Positions 11,023-43,219 of a stretch of 64,000 nucleotides of DNA are shown piece by piece (the first letter of the stretch is position 1; every line of letters begins with the position of its first letter). The position numbers and the translations under genes were made by a program. Source of the DNA: an uncultured Erysipelotrichaceae bacterium (GTDB lineage: Bacteria > Bacillota_I > Bacilli_A > RF39 > UBA660); assembly GCA_902798815.1 (NCBI GenBank), contig CADBYH010000002.1:23998-87997 (forward strand), in the 5' to 3' direction. The notes under the pieces were generated by a model, which did not search any database, was not told the origin of the DNA, and saw nothing but the letters and a program-made list of their open reading frames with translations.

Positions 11023-12561
11023 TTATTTTTTTGAATCAATTCTCATAAATAAAGCTTTAGGCGTACTTAATTCATATTTATTATCAGGATTATAACTAAA
11101 TGATTTATCATTAATATTCAATTGTTTAAATATCTCATCACTTGTTAAAGTTAAAAATGGATTTAAAAACACTGAACATACTCTTATAGATTCAAGAAGA
11201 TTATATAAAACAGTCTCTAATCTATCAGATAAAGATTCATCTTTTGCCAATATCCAAGGAGTTGTTTCATCAATGTACTTATTACTTGCACGTAATACAT
11301 TAAATATTTCAGTTAATGCATCACTTATTTGTAATTTATCCATTTTATCACTGATACTTTTCTCCAAACCATTTATTTCACTGATAAATGCCTCATCTAT
11401 CTTTTCATTAATGCCTTTATTTATTATTTTTCCATCAAAATATTTATTTCCCATTGAAATGGTTCTTTGTACCAAATTACCAAGTATATTAGCAAGATCT
11501 CCATTTATTCTTTCAATTAATAAATCTCTAGTAAATATACCGTCACTTGCAAAAGGAATTTCATGTAAGAAATAATATCTGACTGCATCAACTCCAAATT
11601 CTTCTACTAAATCATCAGCATAAATAACATTACCACGAGATTTACTCATCTTCCCATCACTCATTATTAACCAAGGATGTCCAAAAACCTGTTTTGGTAA
11701 AGGAATGTCTAAACTCATTAAAAAACAAGGCCAATATATTGTATGAAATCTAATTATATCTTTTCCTATCAAATGTAAATCTGCTGGCCATTTATAATTA
11801 AATTCAGCATTATCAACACCAACATCATAACCTATATTTGTAATATAATTTGTTAAAGCATCAAGCCATACATATACAACATGTTTAGGATCAAAATCAA
11901 CAGGTATTCCCCATTTAAAAGATGTTCTTGATACACATAAATCTTGCAAACCTGGTTTAATAAAATTATTAACCATTTCATTTTTACGTGATACCGGTTG
12001 AATAAAATCTGGATGCTCTTCAATATATTTTTCAAGTTGTTTTTGGTATTTACTTAATTTAAAGAAATAAGCCTCTTCAGATTTCTTTTCAACAACTCTA
12101 CCACAATCAGGACAAACATACTCACCATTTTCATTTTTATCTAATTGAGATTCTGTCCAGAATGCTTCATCAGGAGTACAATACCATCCCTCATATTTAC
12201 CTAAGTAAATATCACCTTTATCATACATATATTTAAAAATATGTTGTACAACCTTTTCATGATTAGGATCTGTTGTTCTAACAAAATTATCATAACTAGT
12301 ATTCATAATATCCCAAATTTGTTTTATAACTTCTGATTTTTCATCAACAAATTGTTTTGGAGATATACCTGCCTCTTTTGCCTTCAACTCGATTTTTTCT
12401 CCATGTTCATCAGTACCAGTTTGAAAATAAACATCATAACCTTGTAATCTTTTAAATCTTGCTATAGCATCAGCCAAAACAATCTCATATGTATTACCAA
12501 TATGAGGTTTTCCAGATGTATATGCAATTGCTGTAGAAATATAATACTTTTCTTTTTTCAT
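11023..12561 (-). CDS. metG: Methionine--tRNA ligase (short form, no C-terminal tRNA-binding domain)
   Basis: HIGN (HIGH) and KMSKS motifs, CPDC zinc knuckle. Confidence 0.97.
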   Translation of the reverse strand: MKKEKYYISTAIAYTSGKPHIGNTYEIVLADAIARFKRLQGYDVYFQTGTDEHGEKIELKAKEAGISPKQFVDEKSEVIKQIWDIMNTSYDNFVRTTDPNHEKVVQHIFKYMYDKGDIYLGKYEGWYCTPDEAFWTESQLDKNENGEYVCPDCGRVVEKKSEEAYFFKLSKYQKQLEKYIEEHPDFIQPVSRKNEMVNNFIKPGLQDLCVSRTSFKWGIPVDFDPKHVVYVWLDALTNYITNIGYDVGVDNAEFNYKWPADLHLIGKDIIRFHTIYWPCFLMSLDIPLPKQVFGHPWLIMSDGKMSKSRGNVIYADDLVEEFGVDAVRYYFLHEIPFASDGIFTRDLLIERINGDLANILGNLVQRTISMGNKYFDGKIINKGINEKIDEAFISEINGLEKSISDKMDKLQISDALTEIFNVLRASNKYIDETTPWILAKDESLSDRLETVLYNLLESIRVCSVFLNPFLTLTSDEIFKQLNINDKSFSYNPDNKYELSTPKALFMRIDSKK

Positions 12562-12574
12562 AATTATCCCTCCA

Positions 12575-12800
12575 AAAAAAAATTATTATAAATATAAGGA
12601 CGAAATATCGCGGTACCACCTTACTTTATAATAATTAATATTATACACTTAACATAGTTAACGCCTATATACGTCTATATCTACATATCGATATAAAAGT
12701 TCAGAAGCCATACAACTATATAATCTTATACTCATTTTCACCATCAGAGTTCTCTAAAATAAAACATAATATAGTGCTCTTCATCACAACATTTAAATAT
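12575..12800 (-). promoter_or_regulatory. T-box leader (Met specifier) upstream of metG
   Basis: The minus strand carries the T-box core AAGGTGGTACCGCG (12609-12622). There is an upstream AGAGA element, and a GGTGAAAATGAG loop places AUG (12735-12733) as the specifier. A possible terminator precedes the T9 run before the RBS. Confidence 0.75.
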
Positions 12801-18280: not shown

Positions 18281-19011
18281 CTAATCACTTCCTCTTGCAT
18301 TCTTTTATACTCATCACTAATAGAACCATCTGAGTTATACATAACCAAAGGTCTATCAATAAATAACCCCGGATTACCGCATTTTTGACCTTCAATTAAA
18401 ACTATACTACTCTGTTTATCAATTGATTCATAAATAAATTTAACCCTTTTTGGTTCAATATTATACTTTCTAAAACTATCAAAAATATCTAATAATCTCT
18501 CTGTTCTATGAACAATACAAAAATTTCCTTTTTCTTTTAAAACTTTATTTGCACAATAACAAACTTGATCTAAATTAATCAGTATCTCGTGTCTTGCAAC
18601 AGCCTTTTCATAACTTATATTCTTTATACTACTTTCAATATTTTTAAAAAATGGTGGATTACATAAAACCAAATCATATTTATTAATATTATCATTAACA
18701 TTTGAAAAATCAATAACATTCATATTATACAAGTTAATTCTATTACCCAAATTATTATACTCAACAGATTTTTTAGCTAAAGCAAACACATTATTTTGAA
18801 TCTCAACAGCATCAATTATTCTATTACATCTTTTACTTAGAATTAAAGGAATAACTGCATTACCTGTACAAAAATCAACTATATTTTTATCCTTTAATCT
18901 AATCGTTGAATAATTTGCTAAAAAAACACTATCCAAAGAAAAAGAAAAATATTGAGAGTCTTGATAGATTTTTAAATTTTTATATCCAAGGATATCATTA
19001 ATTTTTTCCAT
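18277..19011 (-). CDS. tRNA (adenine-N6)-methyltransferase, YabB/TrmN6-like
   Basis: NPPF motif (LCNPPFF). The start is placed at MEKINDILGYK, which overlaps the ricT stop by 14 nt. Confidence 0.85.
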   Translation of the reverse strand: MEKINDILGYKNLKIYQDSQYFSFSLDSVFLANYSTIRLKDKNIVDFCTGNAVIPLILSKRCNRIIDAVEIQNNVFALAKKSVEYNNLGNRINLYNMNVIDFSNVNDNINKYDLVLCNPPFFKNIESSIKNISYEKAVARHEILINLDQVCYCANKVLKEKGNFCIVHRTERLLDIFDSFRKYNIEPKRVKFIYESIDKQSSIVLIEGQKCGNPGLFIDRPLVMYNSDGSISDEYKRMQEEVIR

Positions 19012-19798
19012 CTCTTGATTCCCCAGGAAATTTGCTAATTCCTTTATCTCCCAAATCAACAGAGTAAGTATTATTAAATACATCAATATCAACAACTTTT
19101 CCCATTCCTTCAGGAGTATCAGTTATTAAACCAATCTTAGGTAATGATTTTTTTAATTCGGTATATGTTTCATTTTCATATCCCAAACAACATAATAATC
19201 TTCCACAAATACCATTTATTTTAGAAGGGTTTAATGCAAGTAGTTGATTCTTTGCCATATTTATTGAAACACTATTAAAATCAGTTAAAAACGTATTACA
19301 ACATAAAAATAATCCACAAGGCCCTAACCCACCTATTTTTTTAGATTTATCCCTAACACCAATTTGTCTTAATTCAATTCTTGTTTTGTATTTTTGTGCT
19401 ATTTTTTTTACTAAATCCCTAAAATCGATTCGATCATCTGAAATAAAAAACAAAGACAATTGTAATCCATCAATACTCATATATGAATCAATAAAATTCA
19501 TATCAAGATTTAATTCCTTACTATACTTTTTAGCATCTTTTAATGCATTAACTTGTATTTTATTATTCTTTTTAATTTTTAATTCATCATCCTTAGAAAG
19601 TATTCTTATAACACTATTTAATGGTAAATCCAAATTTTTCTTTTTTTCTTTATAAGTTTCTTTAATAACTTTACCACTATATAAAATTCCATCAACTTCA
19701 AACACCACTAAATCACCTTTCTTTAAATCTAAAAAACCAGGTGATAAATAATAAATACTTTTCATTTCTGGAATACTAACAACAACAACATTCATCAT
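18998..19798 (-). CDS. ricT: PSP1-domain protein RicT/YaaT
   Basis: Cys-rich PSP1 signature GLGPCGLFLCC...CGRLLCC. Downstream of holB as in B. subtilis. Confidence 0.93.
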   Translation of the reverse strand: MMNVVVVSIPEMKSIYYLSPGFLDLKKGDLVVFEVDGILYSGKVIKETYKEKKKNLDLPLNSVIRILSKDDELKIKKNNKIQVNALKDAKKYSKELNLDMNFIDSYMSIDGLQLSLFFISDDRIDFRDLVKKIAQKYKTRIELRQIGVRDKSKKIGGLGPCGLFLCCNTFLTDFNSVSINMAKNQLLALNPSKINGICGRLLCCLGYENETYTELKKSLPKIGLITDTPEGMGKVVDIDVFNNTYSVDLGDKGISKFPGESRDGKN

Positions 19799-23462: not shown

Positions 23463-23915
23463 TTATTTATTGTTCCTTTGTTTATCAAAAAAACTATTCA
23501 AAATACTTTTAGATTTATTCACATATAAATTAGATAAAAATTCAACACCAGGATTTGAATTATCTTTTAAAAAAATCATTTCAATAATTTTTAAATTATT
23601 AGGATCAGTATTATTTAATGCAGAATAAACATTTTTAATTCTTGCTTGTTTAATAGCACTTGCACACATAGGACAAGGATCCAAAGTTAAATACATATCA
23701 CAATCTTCTAATCTCCAGTTATTTAAATAACTAGAAGCTTCTTTTATTGCTATTATTTCCGCATGATATATACAACAATTATTAGTTTCTTTTAAATTAT
23801 GCCCAGTTGCTATAACTTTATCATTTTTTACAATAACACAACCAATTGGAACTTCATTATTATCATACGCTTTTTTTGCTTCAGTAAAAGCTAACTCAAA
23901 ATATTTATTATCCAT
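23463..23915 (-). CDS. tadA: tRNA-specific adenosine deaminase
   Basis: HAEIIAI and PCPMC zinc motifs. The true start MDNKYFELAF at 23915 has a GGAGGA RBS. The upstream ORF extension covers the SRP RNA. Confidence 0.93.
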   Translation of the reverse strand: MDNKYFELAFTEAKKAYDNNEVPIGCVIVKNDKVIATGHNLKETNNCCIYHAEIIAIKEASSYLNNWRLEDCDMYLTLDPCPMCASAIKQARIKNVYSALNNTDPNNLKIIEMIFLKDNSNPGVEFLSNLYVNKSKSILNSFFDKQRNNK

Positions 23916-23934
23916 ATGTATCCTCCAAAATAAA

Positions 23935-24010
23935 AAGTGCACATGAAAGGAGGATTTTAAGGCTGCTATCTTCCGATCCTGACCTGTTTCAATCACTTTC
24001 ATTGCACGTG
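23935..24010 (-). ncRNA. ffs: Signal recognition particle RNA, minimal (4.5S-like) form
   Basis: The minus strand reads GTGCAATGAAAGTGATTGAAACAGGTCAGGATCGGAAGATAGCAGCCTTAAAATCCTCCTTTCATGTGCAC. It contains the conserved domain IV GGUCAGG-AUC-GGAA-GAU-AGCAGCC. The termini pair (GUGCA/AUGAAAG with CUUUCAU/UGCAC), and the helix is followed by TTTTTATTTT. Confidence 0.85.
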
Positions 24011-24013
24011 ATT

Positions 24014-24042
24014 ATTGTAATATATAATAATAGAATTGTAAA
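24014..24042 (-). promoter_or_regulatory. Sigma-A-type promoter for SRP RNA (and probably tadA-dnaX)
   Basis: The minus strand reads TTTACA, a 17-bp spacer, then TACAAT. The RNA 5' helix starts about 6-8 nt downstream. Confidence 0.6.
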
Positions 24043-24074
24043 TATTTATTTTTATTTTATAATAATTTATTCTA

Positions 24075-24090
24075 TGTTTCACGTGAAACA
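24075..24090. promoter_or_regulatory. parS: parS site (ParB/Spo0J loading site), perfect palindrome
   Basis: TGTTTCACGTGAAACA matches the Firmicute parS consensus TGTTNCACGTGAAACA at 16/16 positions. Confidence 0.85.
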
Positions 24091-24097
24091 TTAATAA

Positions 24098-24113
24098 TAT
24101 TTATTGGGAAATA
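24098..24113. promoter_or_regulatory. Degenerate Noc-binding-site-like element
   Basis: TATTTATTGGGAAATA matches the adjacent perfect NBS palindrome at 13/16 positions. The right half-site GGGAAATA is intact. Confidence 0.4.
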
Positions 24114-24123
24114 ATTTTAAAAA

Positions 24124-24139
24124 TATTTCCCGGGAAATA
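24124..24139. promoter_or_regulatory. Noc-binding site (NBS), perfect palindrome
   Basis: TATTTCCCGGGAAATA contains the 14-bp B. subtilis NBS consensus ATTTCCCGGGAAAT. Confidence 0.8.
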
Positions 24140-24150
24140 AAATAAGTGAA

Positions 24151-24166
24151 TGTTTCACGTGAAACA
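24151..24166. promoter_or_regulatory. parS: parS site, second perfect copy
   Basis: TGTTTCACGTGAAACA lies inside a 24-bp direct repeat that is identical to the sequence around the first site. Confidence 0.85.
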
Positions 24167-24171
24167 TTAAT

Positions 24172-24208
24172 AACAAAAAAAGATCTTATTCTTCAATAAG
24201 ATCTTTTT
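24172..24208 (-). terminator. Rho-independent terminator of gyrA
   Basis: The minus strand reads AGATCTTATT-GAAG-AATAAGATCT followed by TTTTTTTG. The gyrA stop codon lies inside the hairpin. Confidence 0.75.
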
Positions 24209-26636
24209 CTTCATCATTACTATCATCTTTTTCCACAAGAGCAACAGTAGAAACTTTTTGATCATTTTTTAAATTCATAAGTCTTATACCTTGAGTTGCC
24301 CTTTTTAAAGTAGAGACCTGTTCTAACGGAAGTTTAATAATAGTACCAGTATCAGTCATAATAATTAAATCCAAATCATCAGAAGGATTAAAACATTTCA
24401 AAGAAACCATAATACCATTCTTTTCGGTTAAATTATATGCCTTAACACCTTTACTACCTCTATGAGTTAATCTATACTCATCAATCAAAGATTTCTTTCC
24501 ATAACCATTTTCAGTAGTAATTAAAACCATATGATTTGATTCAACTGCATCTGCACCAACAACGATAGCACCATCTAATTCAATTCCTTTTACACCAGAA
24601 CTACTTCTACCCATAGATCTAATTTCATTTTCATCAAACCTGACCATTCTACCATTGCTTGCACCAATAACAATTTCATTTTTTCCACAAGTCTTTTTTA
24701 CCGCAATCAATTCGTCATTATCACGTAATACGATAGCTATTTTTCCACCTTTTCTAATATTATCAAACTCATCAATAGGTGTACGTTTTACTATTCCGTT
24801 TTTAGTGCAGAACATCAAATATTTAGTTGTATCATCATTTGGATTAACACTTAATATCGAACTAATGTTCTCATTCTTCTCCAAAGGTAATAAATTAATA
24901 ATTGGTATACCTTTTGACTGTCTTGAAAATTCAGGAACTTCATATCCTTTCATTCTATACACTCTACCTCTATTAGAGAAGAATAATAAATAATCATGTG
25001 TACTCATAGATAAAATTCTTTCCACAAAGTCATCTTCGTTAGTTGTCATACCTTTGATACCTACTCCTCCTCTATTTTGAGTTTTATATGTATCAATTCT
25101 AAGTCTTTTAATATATCCTTTTTTAGTTAAATTGATAATAATATTTTCTTCAGGAATTAAAGATTCATCTTCAATATATTCAATTGCTGTCATATCAATA
25201 TTTGTTCTTCTTTCATCACCATATTTTTGTTTAATTTCTAACAATTCATTTTTAATTACTTCTAGAACACGTGCATCACTTGCTAAAATACTCTTTAATT
25301 CTTCAATTAATTTTAATAAATCCACAAGTTCATTTTCAATTTTTTCTCTTTCTAATCCAGTTAAACGACGTAACCTCATCTCTAAAATTGCATTTGCTTG
25401 AATCTCAGTTAATTTAAAACCATTCATCAAACCTTGTCTAGCTTCTTCATCAGATTTTGAACCTCTAATAACTTTAATAACAGCATCAATATTATCCAAC
25501 GCAATCTTTAAACCTTCTAATATATGAACTCTTTTCTCGGCAACATCCAAATCAAATTTAGTTCTTCTTATAATTACTTCTTTTTGATAATCAATATATT
25601 TAGAAATAATATCCTTTAACCCAAGCGTTTTTGGAACTCCTTGATCTAGCATCAAGAAAATTATTCCATAAGAAGTTTGAAATTGAGTATGTTTATATAA
25701 TTTATTTAATACTACTTGAGCATTTGCATCTTTTTTTAATGTTATAGTAATTTTTATTCCATTTTTTAAATCAGAATGATAATCAGCAATACCATCAATA
25801 ACTTTATTATGAACAAGTTCAGCAACTTTATTTTTTAACTCTAATGTATTAACTCCATAAGGAACCTCATCAATAATAATATACTGTTTACCATTTGATT
25901 CTTCTATTGTTGCTTTACTTCTAATTGTAATAGTTCCTCTTCCTGTTTCATATGCCTTTCTTATACCACTATTTCCAAGTATAGAAGCTCCAGTAGGAAA
26001 ATCAGGTCCTTTTATATATTTCATCAATTCATCTAGTTCAATATCATGATTATCAATATAGGCAACACATCCATCAATTACCTCACTCAAATTATGTGGA
26101 GGAATATTAGTAGCCATTCCAACAGCAATTCCTGTTGTACCATTTACTAATATATTTGGAAATCTTGATGGTAAAACCTCAGGTTCTCTTTCACTTTCAT
26201 CAAAGTTAGGAATAAAATTAACAGTATCTTTATTAATATTTCTTAATAATTCTAAAGAAATCTTTGATAAACGAGACTCTGTATAACGCATTGCTGCTGC
26301 TCCATATCCTTCTATATTACCAAAGTTACCATGACCATCAACTAACATATATCTATATGAAAAATCTTGTGCCATACGAACCATAGCCTCATAAATTGAA
26401 GAATCACCATGAGGATGATATTTTCCCATTACATCTCCAACAATTCTAGCACTTTTTTTATGTGGTTTATCTGGAGTATAACCAGATTCAAACATTGAAT
26501 ATAAAATACGTCTATGAACAGGTTTTAAACCGTCTCTCAAATCAGGTAAAGCACGAGCAACAATAACACTCATAGAGTATTCAAGAAATGAATCTTCTAC
26601 TTCTTTAACTATATTATTTTTTTCTAATCTATCCAT
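24186..26636 (-). CDS. gyrA: DNA gyrase subunit A
   Basis: 816 aa, [14 protein letters not shown] motif, active-site AAMRYTE, C-terminal beta-pinwheel repeats. Confidence 0.98.
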
Positions 26637-31582: not shown

Positions 31583-31653
31583 TGTGGAAAATGTTAATAA
31601 TATGTATTTTTCTTTATATTTGACAAAAAATCATAACAATTTAATGTGGAAAA
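31583..31653. promoter_or_regulatory. oriC part 2: DnaA boxes in the dnaA-dnaN spacer
   Basis: TGTGGAAAA occurs at 31583-31591 and 31645-31653 (8/9 to TGTGGATAA), each followed by (A)TGTTAA, in a 130-bp AT-rich spacer. Confidence 0.7.
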
Positions 31654-33139: not shown

Positions 33140-33297
33140 TAATCCACAAAGAGTTCACAGAATTATCAACAACTTAAAATACCATAAAATAACAATAAAT
33201 GACATTTTTCCACATTTTCCACAAATTTTTAATTAACATAGTTATTAAAGTATTCCACATATCTGTGGAAATTGTTAAAAATAAAAAAAAAAAAAAA
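33140..33297. promoter_or_regulatory. oriC part 1: DnaA-box cluster and A15 tract between dnaA and rpmH
   Basis: Boxes are TAATCCACA 33140-48, tandem TTTTCCACA 33206-14 and 33215-23, and TATTCCACA 33251-59 facing TGTGGAAAT 33264-72. An A15 run spans 33283-97. Gene orientation switches here. Confidence 0.85.
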
Positions 33298-39964: not shown

Positions 39965-41434
39965 ATGTACGGAGAAGAAAAAGATGAAGTAGTTCAACTA
40001 TACTTAGACGATATTATACCTAATAGATTTCAGCCGAGAGAAGTATTTGATGAGAGAGCACTAAAAGAATTAGCTGTTTCTATTAAAGCTCACGGAGTAA
40101 TCCAACCAATAATAGTTAGAAATGTAAATGGTAAATACGAAATAATTGCAGGAGAAAGAAGATATAAAGCTTCAGCGTTGGCTGGATTAACAAAAATTCC
40201 CGCAATAATAAGAAACTTAGATGATAAAGAAAGTTCAAAGGTTGCATTATTAGAGAATCTTCAAAGAAAAAATTTAAATGCAATAGAAGAAGCAAGAACT
40301 TATCAAAAAATCTTAGAAATAGATCAAATGACTCAAGAAGAATTGGCAAAAACAATGGGAAAGAGTCAATCAGCGGTAGCAAACAAAATAAGATTATTAT
40401 CTTTATCAGAAGAAGTACAAGAAGCATTATTAAAAGAGCAAATATCAGAAAGACATGCTAGAGCCTTATTAAATTTAAAGGATCCAAAAAAGCAAAAAGA
40501 ATATTTAAAAAATGTCATAGATACAAAAATGAGTGTTAGAAAATTAGAAGCAGAGATAGAAAAAGAGTTTCCAAAAGCAAAAAAAGCTGATGATATACCA
40601 GTAAATACAACCCAGGAGGCAAGTACAACAGGATTTTTAAATAATAGTCCACTAATGCCAACATCTGTAGATGTTAATGAAGATAACTCAAATTATGGAA
40701 AAGTTGTAATTGCTCCGCCAAAAGAGGATAATGAGGAAGATATGCCAGAATCAGGAAAATTTATAAATTATGGAGAAATAGAAAAAGAGAAAAAAGAACC
40801 AGAAAGACCTCCGGTATCATCAGATATCGATATGGATAAAGTAAGAGCAACATCACAAGATATTTCAAAAAACACAACAGGTTCAGACTTAGATGGGCTA
40901 TTAAATATAGGAGATCCTATTAATCCAGCAAAACAAATTATCAATGATAATCTAATAGATATAAATCCATCTGAAGATTATTTTAATAAACCAGATTTAT
41001 CAGTTGTACAAATACCATCAGTTAATAACGTTGTTTCAGAACCAACATCAATACCAACAGTTAATAATGAACCATTAAAAATAGATGATGAAGAAGATGA
41101 TGATGACGATGAAGAACCAACAGATAATGATGAAGGGGAAGAAAAAATAGAAATACCAAATATACCTGAAGATATCTTAATGGCTACTCAAGATTCTGCT
41201 CCTAAACCAAAGGAACCAGAAAAAGAACCAGCACCAGAGCCAAAAGAAGAAAAATCAACATTGGCACCAATCCCAACAGGAAACGATGATACATCAGGAT
41301 ATACAGTAGAAGAAGCTAAGGAAAAAATATCAGCATTAATAGAAGATTTCAAAAAGAATAATGTAAAAGTAAACGCTGATGAAATGGACTTCCCAAAAGC
41401 ATACCAAGTAATTATAAAGATAGAGAAAAATTAA
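39965..41434 (+). CDS. noc: Noc-type ParB-family protein with long acidic/Pro-rich linker
   Basis: ParB box IIAGERRYKAS. The HTH GKSQSAVANKIRLL...ISERHARAL is of the Noc type (Q, K, ER). The C-terminal YQVIIKIEKN region resembles the Noc C-terminus. Located before soj-spo0J. Confidence 0.85.
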   Translation: MYGEEKDEVVQLYLDDIIPNRFQPREVFDERALKELAVSIKAHGVIQPIIVRNVNGKYEIIAGERRYKASALAGLTKIPAIIRNLDDKESSKVALLENLQRKNLNAIEEARTYQKILEIDQMTQEELAKTMGKSQSAVANKIRLLSLSEEVQEALLKEQISERHARALLNLKDPKKQKEYLKNVIDTKMSVRKLEAEIEKEFPKAKKADDIPVNTTQEASTTGFLNNSPLMPTSVDVNEDNSNYGKVVIAPPKEDNEEDMPESGKFINYGEIEKEKKEPERPPVSSDIDMDKVRATSQDISKNTTGSDLDGLLNIGDPINPAKQIINDNLIDINPSEDYFNKPDLSVVQIPSVNNVVSEPTSIPTVNNEPLKIDDEEDDDDDEEPTDNDEGEEKIEIPNIPEDILMATQDSAPKPKEPEKEPAPEPKEEKSTLAPIPTGNDDTSGYTVEEAKEKISALIEDFKKNNVKVNADEMDFPKAYQVIIKIEKN

Positions 41435-41538: not shown

Positions 41539-42324
41539 ATGGGAAAGGTTATAGCATTAGTTAATCAAAAAGGTGGAGTAGGAAAGACAACAACAAGTAT
41601 TAATCTTTCTGCATCTCTTGCAAAACTAGGAAAAAAAGTATTATTAATTGATTTAGATCCACAAGGAAATACTACAACAGGAGTAGGAATAAACAAAGGA
41701 GAAATAGAAAAAAGCATCTATGATGCATTAATAGATAACTGTAGCATATTAGAAACTATAGTAAAAACAAAATATAAAAACTTTTATGTTATCCCTTCAA
41801 CAATAAATCTTGCTGGATTAGGAAACGAATTATATGATAAAGCAAGAACAGAAAAAGGGTTTAAAAAAGGTGAACAATTAAAAAATAAAATACAAGATTT
41901 AAAAGATAATTTTGACTATATAATCTTAGATTGTCCACCATCACTTGATATAATAACAACAAATGCTTTAACAGCAGCAAATTCAGTAATAATACCAGTT
42001 CAATGTGAATTCTTCGCATTAGAGGGAATAACTCAACTTTTAAAAACAATAATGATAGCACAAAAAACATTAAATCCATCACTTGATATAGAAGGAGTTC
42101 TATTAACAATGTTGGATTCAAGAACAAATTTAGGATTTGAGGTTGTAGAAGATATAAGGAGTTTCTTTAAAGAAAAAGTATATAATACAATTATTCCAAG
42201 ATTAGTAAAATTAACAGAAGCTCCATCACATGGAGAACCAATAATAGAATATGAACCAAACAGTAGAGGATCAGAAGCATATATTAATTTGGCAAAGGAA
42301 GTGATTGAAAGAAATGGAAAATAA
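41539..42324 (+). CDS. soj: Chromosome partitioning ATPase ParA/Soj
   Basis: Deviant Walker A NQKGGVGKTTT, DCPPS motif. Confidence 0.96.
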   Translation: MGKVIALVNQKGGVGKTTTSINLSASLAKLGKKVLLIDLDPQGNTTTGVGINKGEIEKSIYDALIDNCSILETIVKTKYKNFYVIPSTINLAGLGNELYDKARTEKGFKKGEQLKNKIQDLKDNFDYIILDCPPSLDIITTNALTAANSVIIPVQCEFFALEGITQLLKTIMIAQKTLNPSLDIEGVLLTMLDSRTNLGFEVVEDIRSFFKEKVYNTIIPRLVKLTEAPSHGEPIIEYEPNSRGSEAYINLAKEVIERNGK

Positions 42325-43219
42325 TTTACCAGAAACAGGAATTCCTAAAAGAAAAGCATTAGGAAAAGGATTAGAAGAACTTTTTAATAACGAAGTCTTA
42401 GATTATAGTTCTGTAGAAGAGAAAATTGTAACAGAGACACCTAAAGAAAACATAGAAAACATAAAAATTGCAGAATTAAGAAGTAATCCATATCAGCCAA
42501 GAAAAGTATTTGATGAAGAAGCACTAAAAGAACTAGCTATTTCAATAAAAGAACATGGAGTATTTCAGCCAATAATTGTAAAAAAATCAATAAAGGGATA
42601 TGAAATAATTGCAGGAGAAAGAAGAGTAAAAGCTTCAATGATGGCGGGATTAACAGAAATACCAGCTATAGTAAGAGATTTTAATGATACACAAATGATG
42701 GAAATTGCATTATTAGAAAACTTACAAAGAGAAAATTTATCTGCAATAGAAGAAGCAGAAGCATATAAAAAACTTCAAGAAACATTATCTTTAACACAAG
42801 AAGAATTAGCAAGAAGACTTGGAAAAAGTAGAAGTCACATAACTAATATGTTAGGGCTATTATTATTACCAGAAGAAATCCAAAAAGATATTAATGAAAA
42901 GAAAATATCAATGGGACATGCCAGAGTACTAAGTAAACTTGAAAATAAAGAACAACAAAAAGAATTAGAACAAAAAGTAATTAATGAGGGAATGAGTGTC
43001 AGAGACCTAGAAATAATAACTCAAGAACCAAGAATTATCAAAACAAACCCTCAGAAACATCAACAACAACCAAATGAATATGAATATTTACAAGAAGAAT
43101 TAAAAGAAAAGTTAGGAACAAAAGTAGTAGTCAAAAAAAATAAAATTGAAATTTCATTTGTAAATAGTAGTGATTTGAATAGAATACTAGAAGTAATGAA
43201 TATTGAGGTAGGTAGATAA
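42314..43219 (+). CDS. spo0J: Chromosome partitioning protein ParB/Spo0J
   Basis: IIAGERRVKAS ParB box. The HTH GKSRSHITN...ISMGHARVL is of the ParB type (R, G). The start is ATG 42314 or TTG 42305. Confidence 0.95.
   Translation: MENNLPETGIPKRKALGKGLEELFNNEVLDYSSVEEKIVTETPKENIENIKIAELRSNPYQPRKVFDEEALKELAISIKEHGVFQPIIVKKSIKGYEIIAGERRVKASMMAGLTEIPAIVRDFNDTQMMEIALLENLQRENLSAIEEAEAYKKLQETLSLTQEELARRLGKSRSHITNMLGLLLLPEEIQKDINEKKISMGHARVLSKLENKEQQKELEQKVINEGMSVRDLEIITQEPRIIKTNPQKHQQQPNEYEYLQEELKEKLGTKVVVKKNKIEISFVNSSDLNRILEVMNIEVGR

Follow-up and report, generated by a model that had tools for sequence, protein, structure and literature searches.

We analysed a 64,000-nucleotide stretch of DNA (the window) from an uncultured Erysipelotrichaceae bacterium (contig CADBYH010000002.1 of assembly GCA_902798815.1, positions 23,998 to 87,997), in which an array of short palindromes lies in the spacer between gyrA and ffs, the gene for the RNA of the signal recognition particle (SRP). 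The palindromes are of two kinds, matching parS, the loading site of the partition protein ParB, and the Noc-binding site (NBS), respectively. The window has a G+C content of around 25%, and the sign of its GC skew switches at about 33 kb, with clusters of DnaA boxes on either side of dnaA. The leftward replichore carries dnaA, dnaN, recF, gyrB and gyrA in this order, followed beyond gyrA by a terminator-like hairpin, the array, a promoter-like site for ffs, the SRP RNA gene, tadA and dnaX. On the other side of the replication origin, oriC, are rsmG, a gene for a 489-residue ParB-family protein, parA and parB. The DnaA-box clusters place the array 7.5-9 kb from oriC, which, together with the skew switch, agrees with the distance of roughly 9 kb given in a preliminary description of this DNA. 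The array occupies the interval from 33 to 124 bp upstream of the -35 hexamer of ffs, directly past the gyrA terminator, matching the earlier placement at about 30-125 bp upstream of the SRP RNA/tadA/dnaX promoter. Coordinates are collected in Table 1.

Table 1. Features of the window (positions count from its first nucleotide; a dot marks features without an assigned strand).
Feature	Position	Strand	Basis
parS, gyrA-proximal copy, predicted ParB loading site	24151-24166	.	perfect match to TGTTNCACGTGAAACA; invariant in comparison with 9 other species
NBS, predicted loading site of the Noc-type paralogue	24124-24139	.	perfect palindrome with ATTTCCCGGGAAAT; invariant in comparison with 9 other species
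Putative decayed NBS copy	24098-24113	.	13/16; insertion relative to the parS-NBS-parS trio of other species
parS, ffs-proximal copy	24075-24090	.	TGTTTCACGTGAAACA; invariant in comparison with 9 other species
24-bp direct repeat, copy 1, ATGTTTCACGTGAAACATTAATAA	24074-24097	+	read from sequence
24-bp direct repeat, copy 2, ATGTTTCACGTGAAACATTAATAA	24150-24173	+	read from sequence
Noc-type paralogue of ParB (489 aa) with a short N-terminus, Q-K-S-R specificity residues, a disordered linker of ~230 aa and a C-terminal domain like that of ParB/Noc	39965-41434	+	
parA (soj)	41539-42324	+	homology and gene order
parB (spo0J), 301 aa, R..G specificity residues, N-terminal KRKALGKGLEELF motif	42314-43219	+	homology
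DnaA-box cluster upstream of dnaA (part of oriC)	33140-33223	.	box scan and GC-skew flip
DnaA boxes in the dnaA-dnaN spacer (part of oriC)	31583-31653	.	box scan
gyrA	24186-26636	-	NCBIfam NF004043, 1148 bits
gyrA intrinsic-terminator-like hairpin followed by U7, spanning the gyrA stop codon	24169-24215	-	-17.7 kcal/mol, z = -6.0 compared with shuffles
ffs promoter-like site, -35 TTTACA, 17-nt spacer, -10 TACAAT	24014-24042	-	consensus scan, 10/12; putative function
SRP RNA (ffs)	23928-24013	-	Rfam RF00169, 58.6 bits
tadA, 150 aa in public assemblies	23463-23915	-	public gene calls

Both parS sites read TGTTTCACGTGAAACA and match the consensus perfectly. The NBS between them, TATTTCCCGGGAAATA, is a perfect 16-bp palindrome, and the fourth site, TATTTATTGGGAAATA, agrees with NBS at 13 of 16 positions, with the right half-site intact. 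Each parS lies in one of the two identical copies of a 24-bp direct repeat. The start-to-start spacings of the four sites are 23, 26 and 27 bp, and the whole array measures 92 bp. Except for the intact half-site, all of these features had been listed in the preliminary description, and they were borne out base by base. A scan of the entire window allowing up to three mismatches returned no parS-like or NBS-like 16-mer besides the four array sites, in agreement with the earlier statement that no other full site is present, parB included. With up to two mismatches, 0.05 matches to the parS consensus are expected per 64 kb, and the observed count was reached in none of 100 shuffles. NBS-like 16-mers with up to three mismatches are expected about 0.37 times per 64 kb, and because the chance that one falls within these 92 bp is approximately 6e-4, the fourth site is most likely a decayed NBS rather than noise. 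In four independent assemblies of the same species all array sites are unchanged; two of the four vary from the window, at 24146 and 24148 (in the linker that joins the gyrA-proximal parS to the NBS) and at 23986 (inside the SRP RNA gene). DnaA boxes are absent from the array and cluster at oriC.

Specificity of ParB and Noc for their sites is set by four positions, occupied by R173, T179, A184 and G201 in ParB and by Q173, K179, K184 and R201 in Noc (Jalal et al., 2020; PMC7383237). Q173 contacts the A at position 1 of NBS and R201 the C at position 6, and one lysine at either 179 or 184 suffices for Noc specificity (PMC7383237). As had been noted before, the window encodes both cognate proteins, with the distinguishing residues in their helix-turn-helix (HTH) domains: ParB has R/M/L/G (GKSRSHITNMLGLLLL...MGHAR), and the paralogue has Q173, K179, S184 and R201 (GKSQSAVANKIRLLSL...SERHAR). 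Comparison with solved structures gives the same division. ParB is closest to Spo0J from B. subtilis (6SDK, 224 bits; best Noc 168 bits), whereas the paralogue is closest to Noc (7NFU, 214 bits; 7OL9, 195 bits; best ParB 177 bits), with KorB as a distant structural relative. The paralogue contains the Pfam domains ParB_N and HTH_ParB, and the CTP (cytidine triphosphate)-binding motifs GERR and ENLQR are invariant across its family; in ParB, too, the CTP motifs are intact. Its ParB-like CTP-binding and HTH domains, closer to Noc, and the gene order rsmG-noc-parA-parB are those expected of Noc; likewise, the parS sites are 16-bp palindromes close to the origin, and the cognate ParB and ParA are both encoded. 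The predicted assignment of parS to ParB and of NBS to the paralogue is thus well founded at the sequence level. Hybrid palindromes, combining a parS half with an NBS half, occur neither in the window nor in any of the fetched loci described below, so two homodimers are expected, and a model with a site for a ParB/Noc heterodimer was ruled out.

The paralogue departs from canonical Noc. Against the NCBIfam model TIGR04285 it scores 281.3 bits (over profile positions 1-201 of 255), below the cut-off of 315. Canonical Noc depends on an N-terminal amphipathic helix both to bind the membrane and to exert nucleoid occlusion (PMC8429893). In the paralogue, the PNRFQPR box has only 18 residues before it, residue 4 aligns with residue 23 of Noc from G. 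thermoleovorans, and stop codons directly before the ATG leave no upstream extension of the open reading frame (ORF); the membrane-targeting helix is therefore absent. It is likewise absent from the 120 closest database homologues, which are 405-515 residues long with 16-20 residues before the box, and from the metagenome loci. All 120 have QK(S/N/T/A)R at the specificity positions, with the fourth position unread in one. The preliminary name ‘Noc’ is supported by the specificity residues and by the closest structures, but has to be qualified by the missing helix, the long linker and the sub-threshold score.

In the AlphaFold2 model of the paralogue, residues 1-205 (the ParB-like N-terminal domain and HTH body) and 445-487 (the C-terminal domain) are predicted confidently, and nearly all of residues 210-443 have a predicted local distance difference test (pLDDT) score below 50. 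Six islands in this linker are conserved among 35-56 homologues: NPLxPT, SNYGKVxIAPP, KFINYGEI, LDxLLNIG, TPAxxI and DYFxxPDL. One of the six, with the consensus GAxLDxLLNIG (TGSDLDGLLNIG in the window), bears a loose likeness to the N-terminal ParA-interaction motif of ParB (KALGKGLEELF), with the basic residues lacking.

To place the array in a wider context, we scanned the species-representative genomes of GTDB (one genome per species, 596 Gb) on both strands for TTTCCCGGGAAA followed, after a gap of 6-36 bp, by GTTNCACGTGNAAC. At least 119 loci were found, compared with about 0.1 expected by chance according to our own estimate from 24 specified bases, 596 Gb, 31 gap lengths and two strands. 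Among the matches listed, all but two are on contigs with 22-32% G+C of uncultured gut or rumen metagenome-assembled genomes (MAGs); the exceptions are a Streptomyces and a high-G+C Oscillospiraceae MAG. The records are labelled Bacilli, Tenericutes, Mycoplasmatota, Erysipelotrichaceae or ‘Clostridium sp. CAG:710/CAG:1000/CAG:417’, and CAG-710 and CAG-1000 we take to belong to the GTDB order RF39. As a name for the clade, ‘Candidatus Scybalousia’ is used ambiguously, both in the NCBI taxonomy and in publications. Some records (L017, L009, L010, L034 and others; L numbers denote individual loci) are titled ‘Bacteroides helcogenes’ or ‘uncultured Muribaculaceae’, yet belong to the clade by gene order and GyrA; such titles probably stem from mistakes made when the deposited sequences were binned or labelled.

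The relatives were examined as stretches of 8-21 kb. Tblastn searches with the window proteins showed that approximately 110 of the matches listed are the same locus, gyrB-gyrA-[sites]-tadA-dnaX-ybaB-recR, with GyrA 52-89% identical to that of the window. Conservation in related genomes, on which the preliminary description had staked its proposal, thus extends at this spacer to more than 100 species-level genomes. Where gyrA and tadA are both present, the spacers among the matches listed hold a median of 6 and a maximum of 16 sites. In 16 relatives the arrays are mostly located between gyrA and ffs, with other positions between ffs and tadA (L037, L075, L113), after ffs (L086) or after tadA (L013), and some are longer than 1 kb. 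The gyrA-tadA interval extends to 1.6-3.5 kb in L061 (2613-6108), L105 (5185-7379), L073 (4231-6443) and L119 (1767-3382), which carry 1-2 kb of extra sequence beside the site array. A complete MAG chromosome of 1.53 Mb (L118; CP091739.1, 1,000,001-1,008,000) has a parS/NBS cluster of 8 sites at 1320-2379 of the fetched block, on which gyrA and tadA were not detected.

Two architectures recur among the relatives. The compact trio parS-NBS-parS, directly after gyrA, was found in 13 loci, with start-to-start spacings of 21-29 bp and 24-45 bp. When the window is aligned with nine trio species, only ATGTTyCACGTGrAACAT (twice) and TATTTCCCGGGAAATA are invariant; the linkers vary in sequence and length, and the putative decayed NBS of the window is an insertion. 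The alignment of the gyrA-ffs spacer across relatives, proposed as a check in the preliminary description, therefore shows two parS and one NBS invariant in 10 species. The other architecture, present in several lineages, is a strictly alternating tandem array with one parS and one NBS per unit and up to 25 sites. The largest array (L086) has 13 NBS and 12 parS with a period of about 80 bp, and L085 has 9 pairs at 75 bp; further periods are 64 bp (L016), 82 bp (L013), 84 bp (L049), 76 bp (L061) and 62 bp (L003). Units with both site types have been amplified in different lineages with differing periods, from 62 to 150 bp. Heterotypic spacings in this site-selected set peak at 26, 35-36 and 47-49 bp, but the range was imposed by the search pattern, the peaks are inflated by repeated units and they share no common phase, so that helical phasing between the site types is not concluded from them.

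We also assembled a sample that was not selected for the sites, consisting of 80 metagenome loci fetched by DnaA similarity (52-85% identity, ±10 kb). Site counts refer to those 21 non-redundant loci that also cover the 3’ flank of gyrA (408 kb), in which the gyrA-tadA spacer makes up 3.5% of the sequence. All 67 parS-like sites are located in this spacer and none elsewhere, parB included. Of 48 NBS-like sites, 36 are in the spacer and the other 12 are dispersed, and 14 of the 21 spacers contain both site types. Heterotypic neighbours are closer together (median 62 bp) than homotypic ones (96 bp; Mann-Whitney p = 0.002). All relatives whose contig covers the noc region encode a paralogue of 338-514 residues, with 14-24 residues before the box, that adjoins rsmG and carries Q..K..R. 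What stands out as robust is a single predicted centromere downstream of gyrA, with NBS packed into it in the part of the clade to which the window belongs. A fixed polarity of the arrays was ruled out: NBS come first after gyrA in 12 of the 14 spacers with both types, but in the site-selected sample parS is first in 53 loci and NBS in 23.

Outside the spacer, perfect 16-bp NBS occur in relatives at conserved positions inside dnaX, about 1.0-1.1 kb from its start (L180 at 20800, L184 at 20742, L186 at 20789 and L189 at 20568; further cases are L200 at 20565, L201 at 20693 and L129 at 20918), and flanking mnmE (L162 at 6124 and 7526, L163 at 6132, L189 at 6542 and L201 at 7565). Relatives with such sites include ones with a parS-only gyrA spacer. 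The dnaX gene of the window has no NBS, the best match having 5 mismatches. In the distant relative L181 (DnaA 55% identical), seven parS form a parS-only tandem array downstream of gyrA (18984-19472), six of them at an exact period of 61 bp, and the stretch fetched from it shows no noc gene.

Loading of ParB and Noc starts at parS and NBS, respectively; the proteins bind CTP, close as clamps, move off the site and then spread over several kb (PMC7053999; PMC8429893), with 8-10 kb measured for Noc from S. aureus and B. subtilis (PMC5540599). We hypothesize that the segment is a composite origin-proximal centromere, with two CTP clamps of the ParB family loading next to each other, and, with some reserve, we consider this the probable reading. 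In the uncultured gut bacterium of the class Bacilli from which this A+T-rich DNA would derive, the parS pair, bracketing the intact and the decayed NBS, would nucleate ParB dimers, and the NBS would nucleate the paralogue, which is encoded beside rsmG-parA-parB, 16 kb away across oriC. Each protein would close upon CTP binding, leave its site and slide onto the flanking DNA. With loading sites 21-50 bp apart, both clamp species would be deposited on one DNA segment, and on the assumption that clamps cannot overtake each other on one DNA, an intermixed zone of ParB and paralogue would arise near the origin. The paralogue would thereby be part of, or be targeted to, the ParB partition complex. 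Because it lacks the membrane helix and carries a disordered linker with conserved motifs, it is most likely an accessory or adaptor of the origin partition complex and not a membrane-tethering occlusion factor. More tentatively, the paralogue could serve the partition complex as a subunit or adaptor of its own in the whole lineage of gut Bacilli, loaded interdigitated with parS and intermixing with ParB. Its linker motifs would then connect the origin with a partner, for which ParA, an anchor and the machineries of division and replication are examples. This broader proposal we regard as possible yet somewhat doubtful.

Several observations weigh against such a composite centromere. In the DnaA-chosen sample the site types do not alternate beyond chance, since 39 of 66 neighbour pairs are heterotypic compared with 34.8 ± 3.3 after shuffling of the labels, and 662 of 5000 permutations reach the observed value. 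The alternation emphasized in the preliminary description is one recurrent architecture but not a general rule; tight co-clustering is what is kept. Tandem duplication of a unit with both sites would give alternation without functional coupling, and selection on sites as opposed to linkers is not discernible inside the tandem arrays, where the units are too alike; the cross-species trio alignment was used for this reason. The Noc-type protein is also encoded in the most distant relatives (DnaA 52-55% identical), but the arrays of these consist of parS only. The same relatives have perfect NBS at conserved places inside dnaX and beside mnmE, so that co-location is not obligatory for the paralogue. 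That the pattern is absent from canonical Noc-bearing bacteria is no more than suggested by the matches listed, all but two of which are from this clade.

An alternative that we consider unlikely, though not to be dismissed lightly, is independent co-residence, in which both site types are functional but unrelated and, as G+C-rich palindromes, have gathered in a rare long non-coding spacer near oriC. In a compact, A+T-rich genome, duplication selected for parS copies would drag NBS along, and alternation would be a by-product. The order of site types, which does not alternate significantly in the DnaA-chosen sample, the parS-only arrays of distant relatives and the near-identical units within arrays, which suggest recent duplication, are all compatible with this explanation, as is the fast turnover of array size and period among close relatives: L012, with GyrA 89% identical, has 7 sites over about 900 bp compared with 3-4 in the window. 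However, the conserved solitary NBS inside dnaX and beside mnmE show that NBS tolerate coding DNA, so their presence in the spacer is not dictated by a scarcity of permissive DNA. Concentration of three quarters of the NBS in 3.5% of the sequence and the closeness of heterotypic neighbours are also difficult to reconcile with it, and hitch-hiking does not explain why the unamplified trio, with only 5-13 bp between sites, is kept while its linkers diverge. We find it still less probable that the two systems are antagonistic, with the NBS-bound paralogue acting as a roadblock or competitor that shapes loading or spreading of ParB, or the reverse, for example to keep ParB clamps out of gyrA or the ffs promoter, or to limit their number. 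DNA-bound proteins can block sliding of ParB, unidirectionally (PMC7053999), and the sites nearly abut, with centre distances of 21-29 bp in compact trios. The NBS found nearest gyrA in the DnaA-chosen sample (12 of 14 spacers) would suit a barrier, but the opposite preference in the site-selected loci (53 with parS, 23 with NBS) leaves no consistent boundary, and in the window and the trios the NBS is placed between two parS, not at the edge. A CTP clamp that leaves its loading site would also make a poor static roadblock (PMC8429893).

Very improbable, in our view, is a role of the palindromes as transcriptional operators, by which ParB-family repressors would control the ffs-tadA-dnaX promoter or termination of gyrA. 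Silencing of promoters is known for clamps of the ParB family such as KorB, and the position of the array between the gyrA terminator and the -35 hexamer of ffs would fit such a role. Placement relative to ffs varies among the 16 relatives, though, arrays can exceed 1 kb, and the -35 and -10 hexamers in the window are overlapped by no site. We give practically no credence to a generic dispersed repeat or a chance likeness without ParB-family binding, since the sites agree exactly with two 16-bp consensus sequences established by experiment, are unique in 64 kb and occur together with two proteins that carry matching specificity residues. Cross-species conservation is confined to the site columns, and the scan with its at least 119 loci, the concentration in the spacer and the cross-species alignment already contradict a chance origin.

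The system has much in common with Spo0J/parS of B. subtilis, namely the 16-bp parS consensus, the origin-proximal position, a parA-parB operon beside rsmG, the R173/G201-type recognition residues and the N-terminal ParA-interaction motif of ParB. In B. subtilis, however, parS sites are scattered over the origin region, whereas here they are in one spacer downstream of gyrA (67 of 67 within ±10 kb of dnaA); in addition, there is no parS in parB, and the cluster is interleaved with sites of a second ParB-family protein. With Noc/NBS of B. subtilis and S. aureus the system shares the NBS core, Q173/K179/R201, the CTP motifs, the position of the gene immediately upstream of parA-parB, and Noc as best structure match. 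In canonical systems NBS occur throughout the half to two-thirds of the chromosome nearest the origin (PMC7383237; PMC5540599), and in contrast to parS, which is confined near oriC, they are widely spread (PMC7383237); here the only NBS of the window, and most of those counted in the DnaA-chosen sample, cluster with parS at distances of tens of bp. Canonical Noc has the N-terminal amphipathic helix (PMC8429893), which the paralogue lacks. It differs further in the insertion of about 230 disordered residues between the DNA-binding and C-terminal domains.

Iterated plasmid centromeres include sopC of F, with 43-bp tandem repeats, parS of P1, with two box types, and parC of R1. The head-to-tail units of 62-150 bp with inverted-repeat sites in the relatives resemble sopC-like centromeres. 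Unlike in these, the unit contains two different palindromes with two paralogous proteins predicted to bind them, and the arrays are chromosomal. The window is a minimal, non-tandem version, with only two 24-bp direct repeats 76 bp apart; true tandem arrays occur in the relatives L086, L085, L016, L013 and L049. The KorB-KorA system of RK2 also has two DNA-binding proteins, at least one of them a ParB-family CTP clamp, with neighbouring sites, but KorA is not a ParB paralogue, unlike the Noc-type protein here. ParB/parS and Noc/NBS are specific enough for use as separate labels (PMC11109969), and in mParSpot these artificial labels have the two site types at separate loci (PMC11109969).

The literature searched contains no report of natural interleaving of parS and NBS, consistent with the preliminary description, which knew of no such locus, nor of a helix-less Noc with a long linker. 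New with respect to that literature are the interleaving, the fact that a deep clade has conserved it at a single locus, the sopC-like arrays of mixed units, and the helix-less, long-linker Noc subfamily. Firmicute parS/ParB, NBS and the Noc recognition code are known parts. ParB and Noc are the textbook case of a duplicated DNA-binding protein of which the copies have diverged in specificity, site distribution and function (segregation as opposed to control of division). Here, both site types are unseparated and packed at one conserved predicted centromere, and the Noc copy is without the feature that defines its known mechanism, in a large, uncultured gut lineage of medical and agricultural relevance. 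If both proteins load there, the locus would offer a natural system for studying how a single DNA track is shared by two sliding clamps that depend on CTP. It would also suggest an undescribed role of Noc-type proteins at the origin and bear on the evolution of Noc function after duplication. In practical terms, the 92 bp would be a compact dual-loading cassette for in vitro and imaging work, and the parS/NBS cluster downstream of gyrA would serve as a sequence signature of the origin region in MAGs of the clade. Should the broader adaptor proposal be true, Noc-type proteins would have a new function, and bacterial centromeres a new class, in which two paralogous CTP switches are combined.

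The hairpin at the end of gyrA was missed by a consensus terminator scan because its stem is A+T-rich, and is supported by direct folding. The best sigma-70-like match for ffs is on the minus strand, with the -35 hexamer at 24042-24037 and the -10 hexamer at 24019-24014. The 3’ end of ffs is only about 12 nt from the start of tadA, and the two are therefore probably co-transcribed. A mechanically called tadA ORF (23463-24002) continues for 87 nt further upstream (23916-24002, minus strand), into the SRP RNA gene, and the public start of tadA is at 23915, preceded by GGAGGA. Elsewhere in the window, a T-box leader (12593-12796, minus strand; Rfam RF00230, 107.8 bits), an ordinary Firmicute feature, is located upstream of a 512-residue ORF (11023-12561), and the segment 54518-58063 (minus strand) contains three minus-strand ORFs with inverted GC skew within the otherwise plus-strand right replichore.

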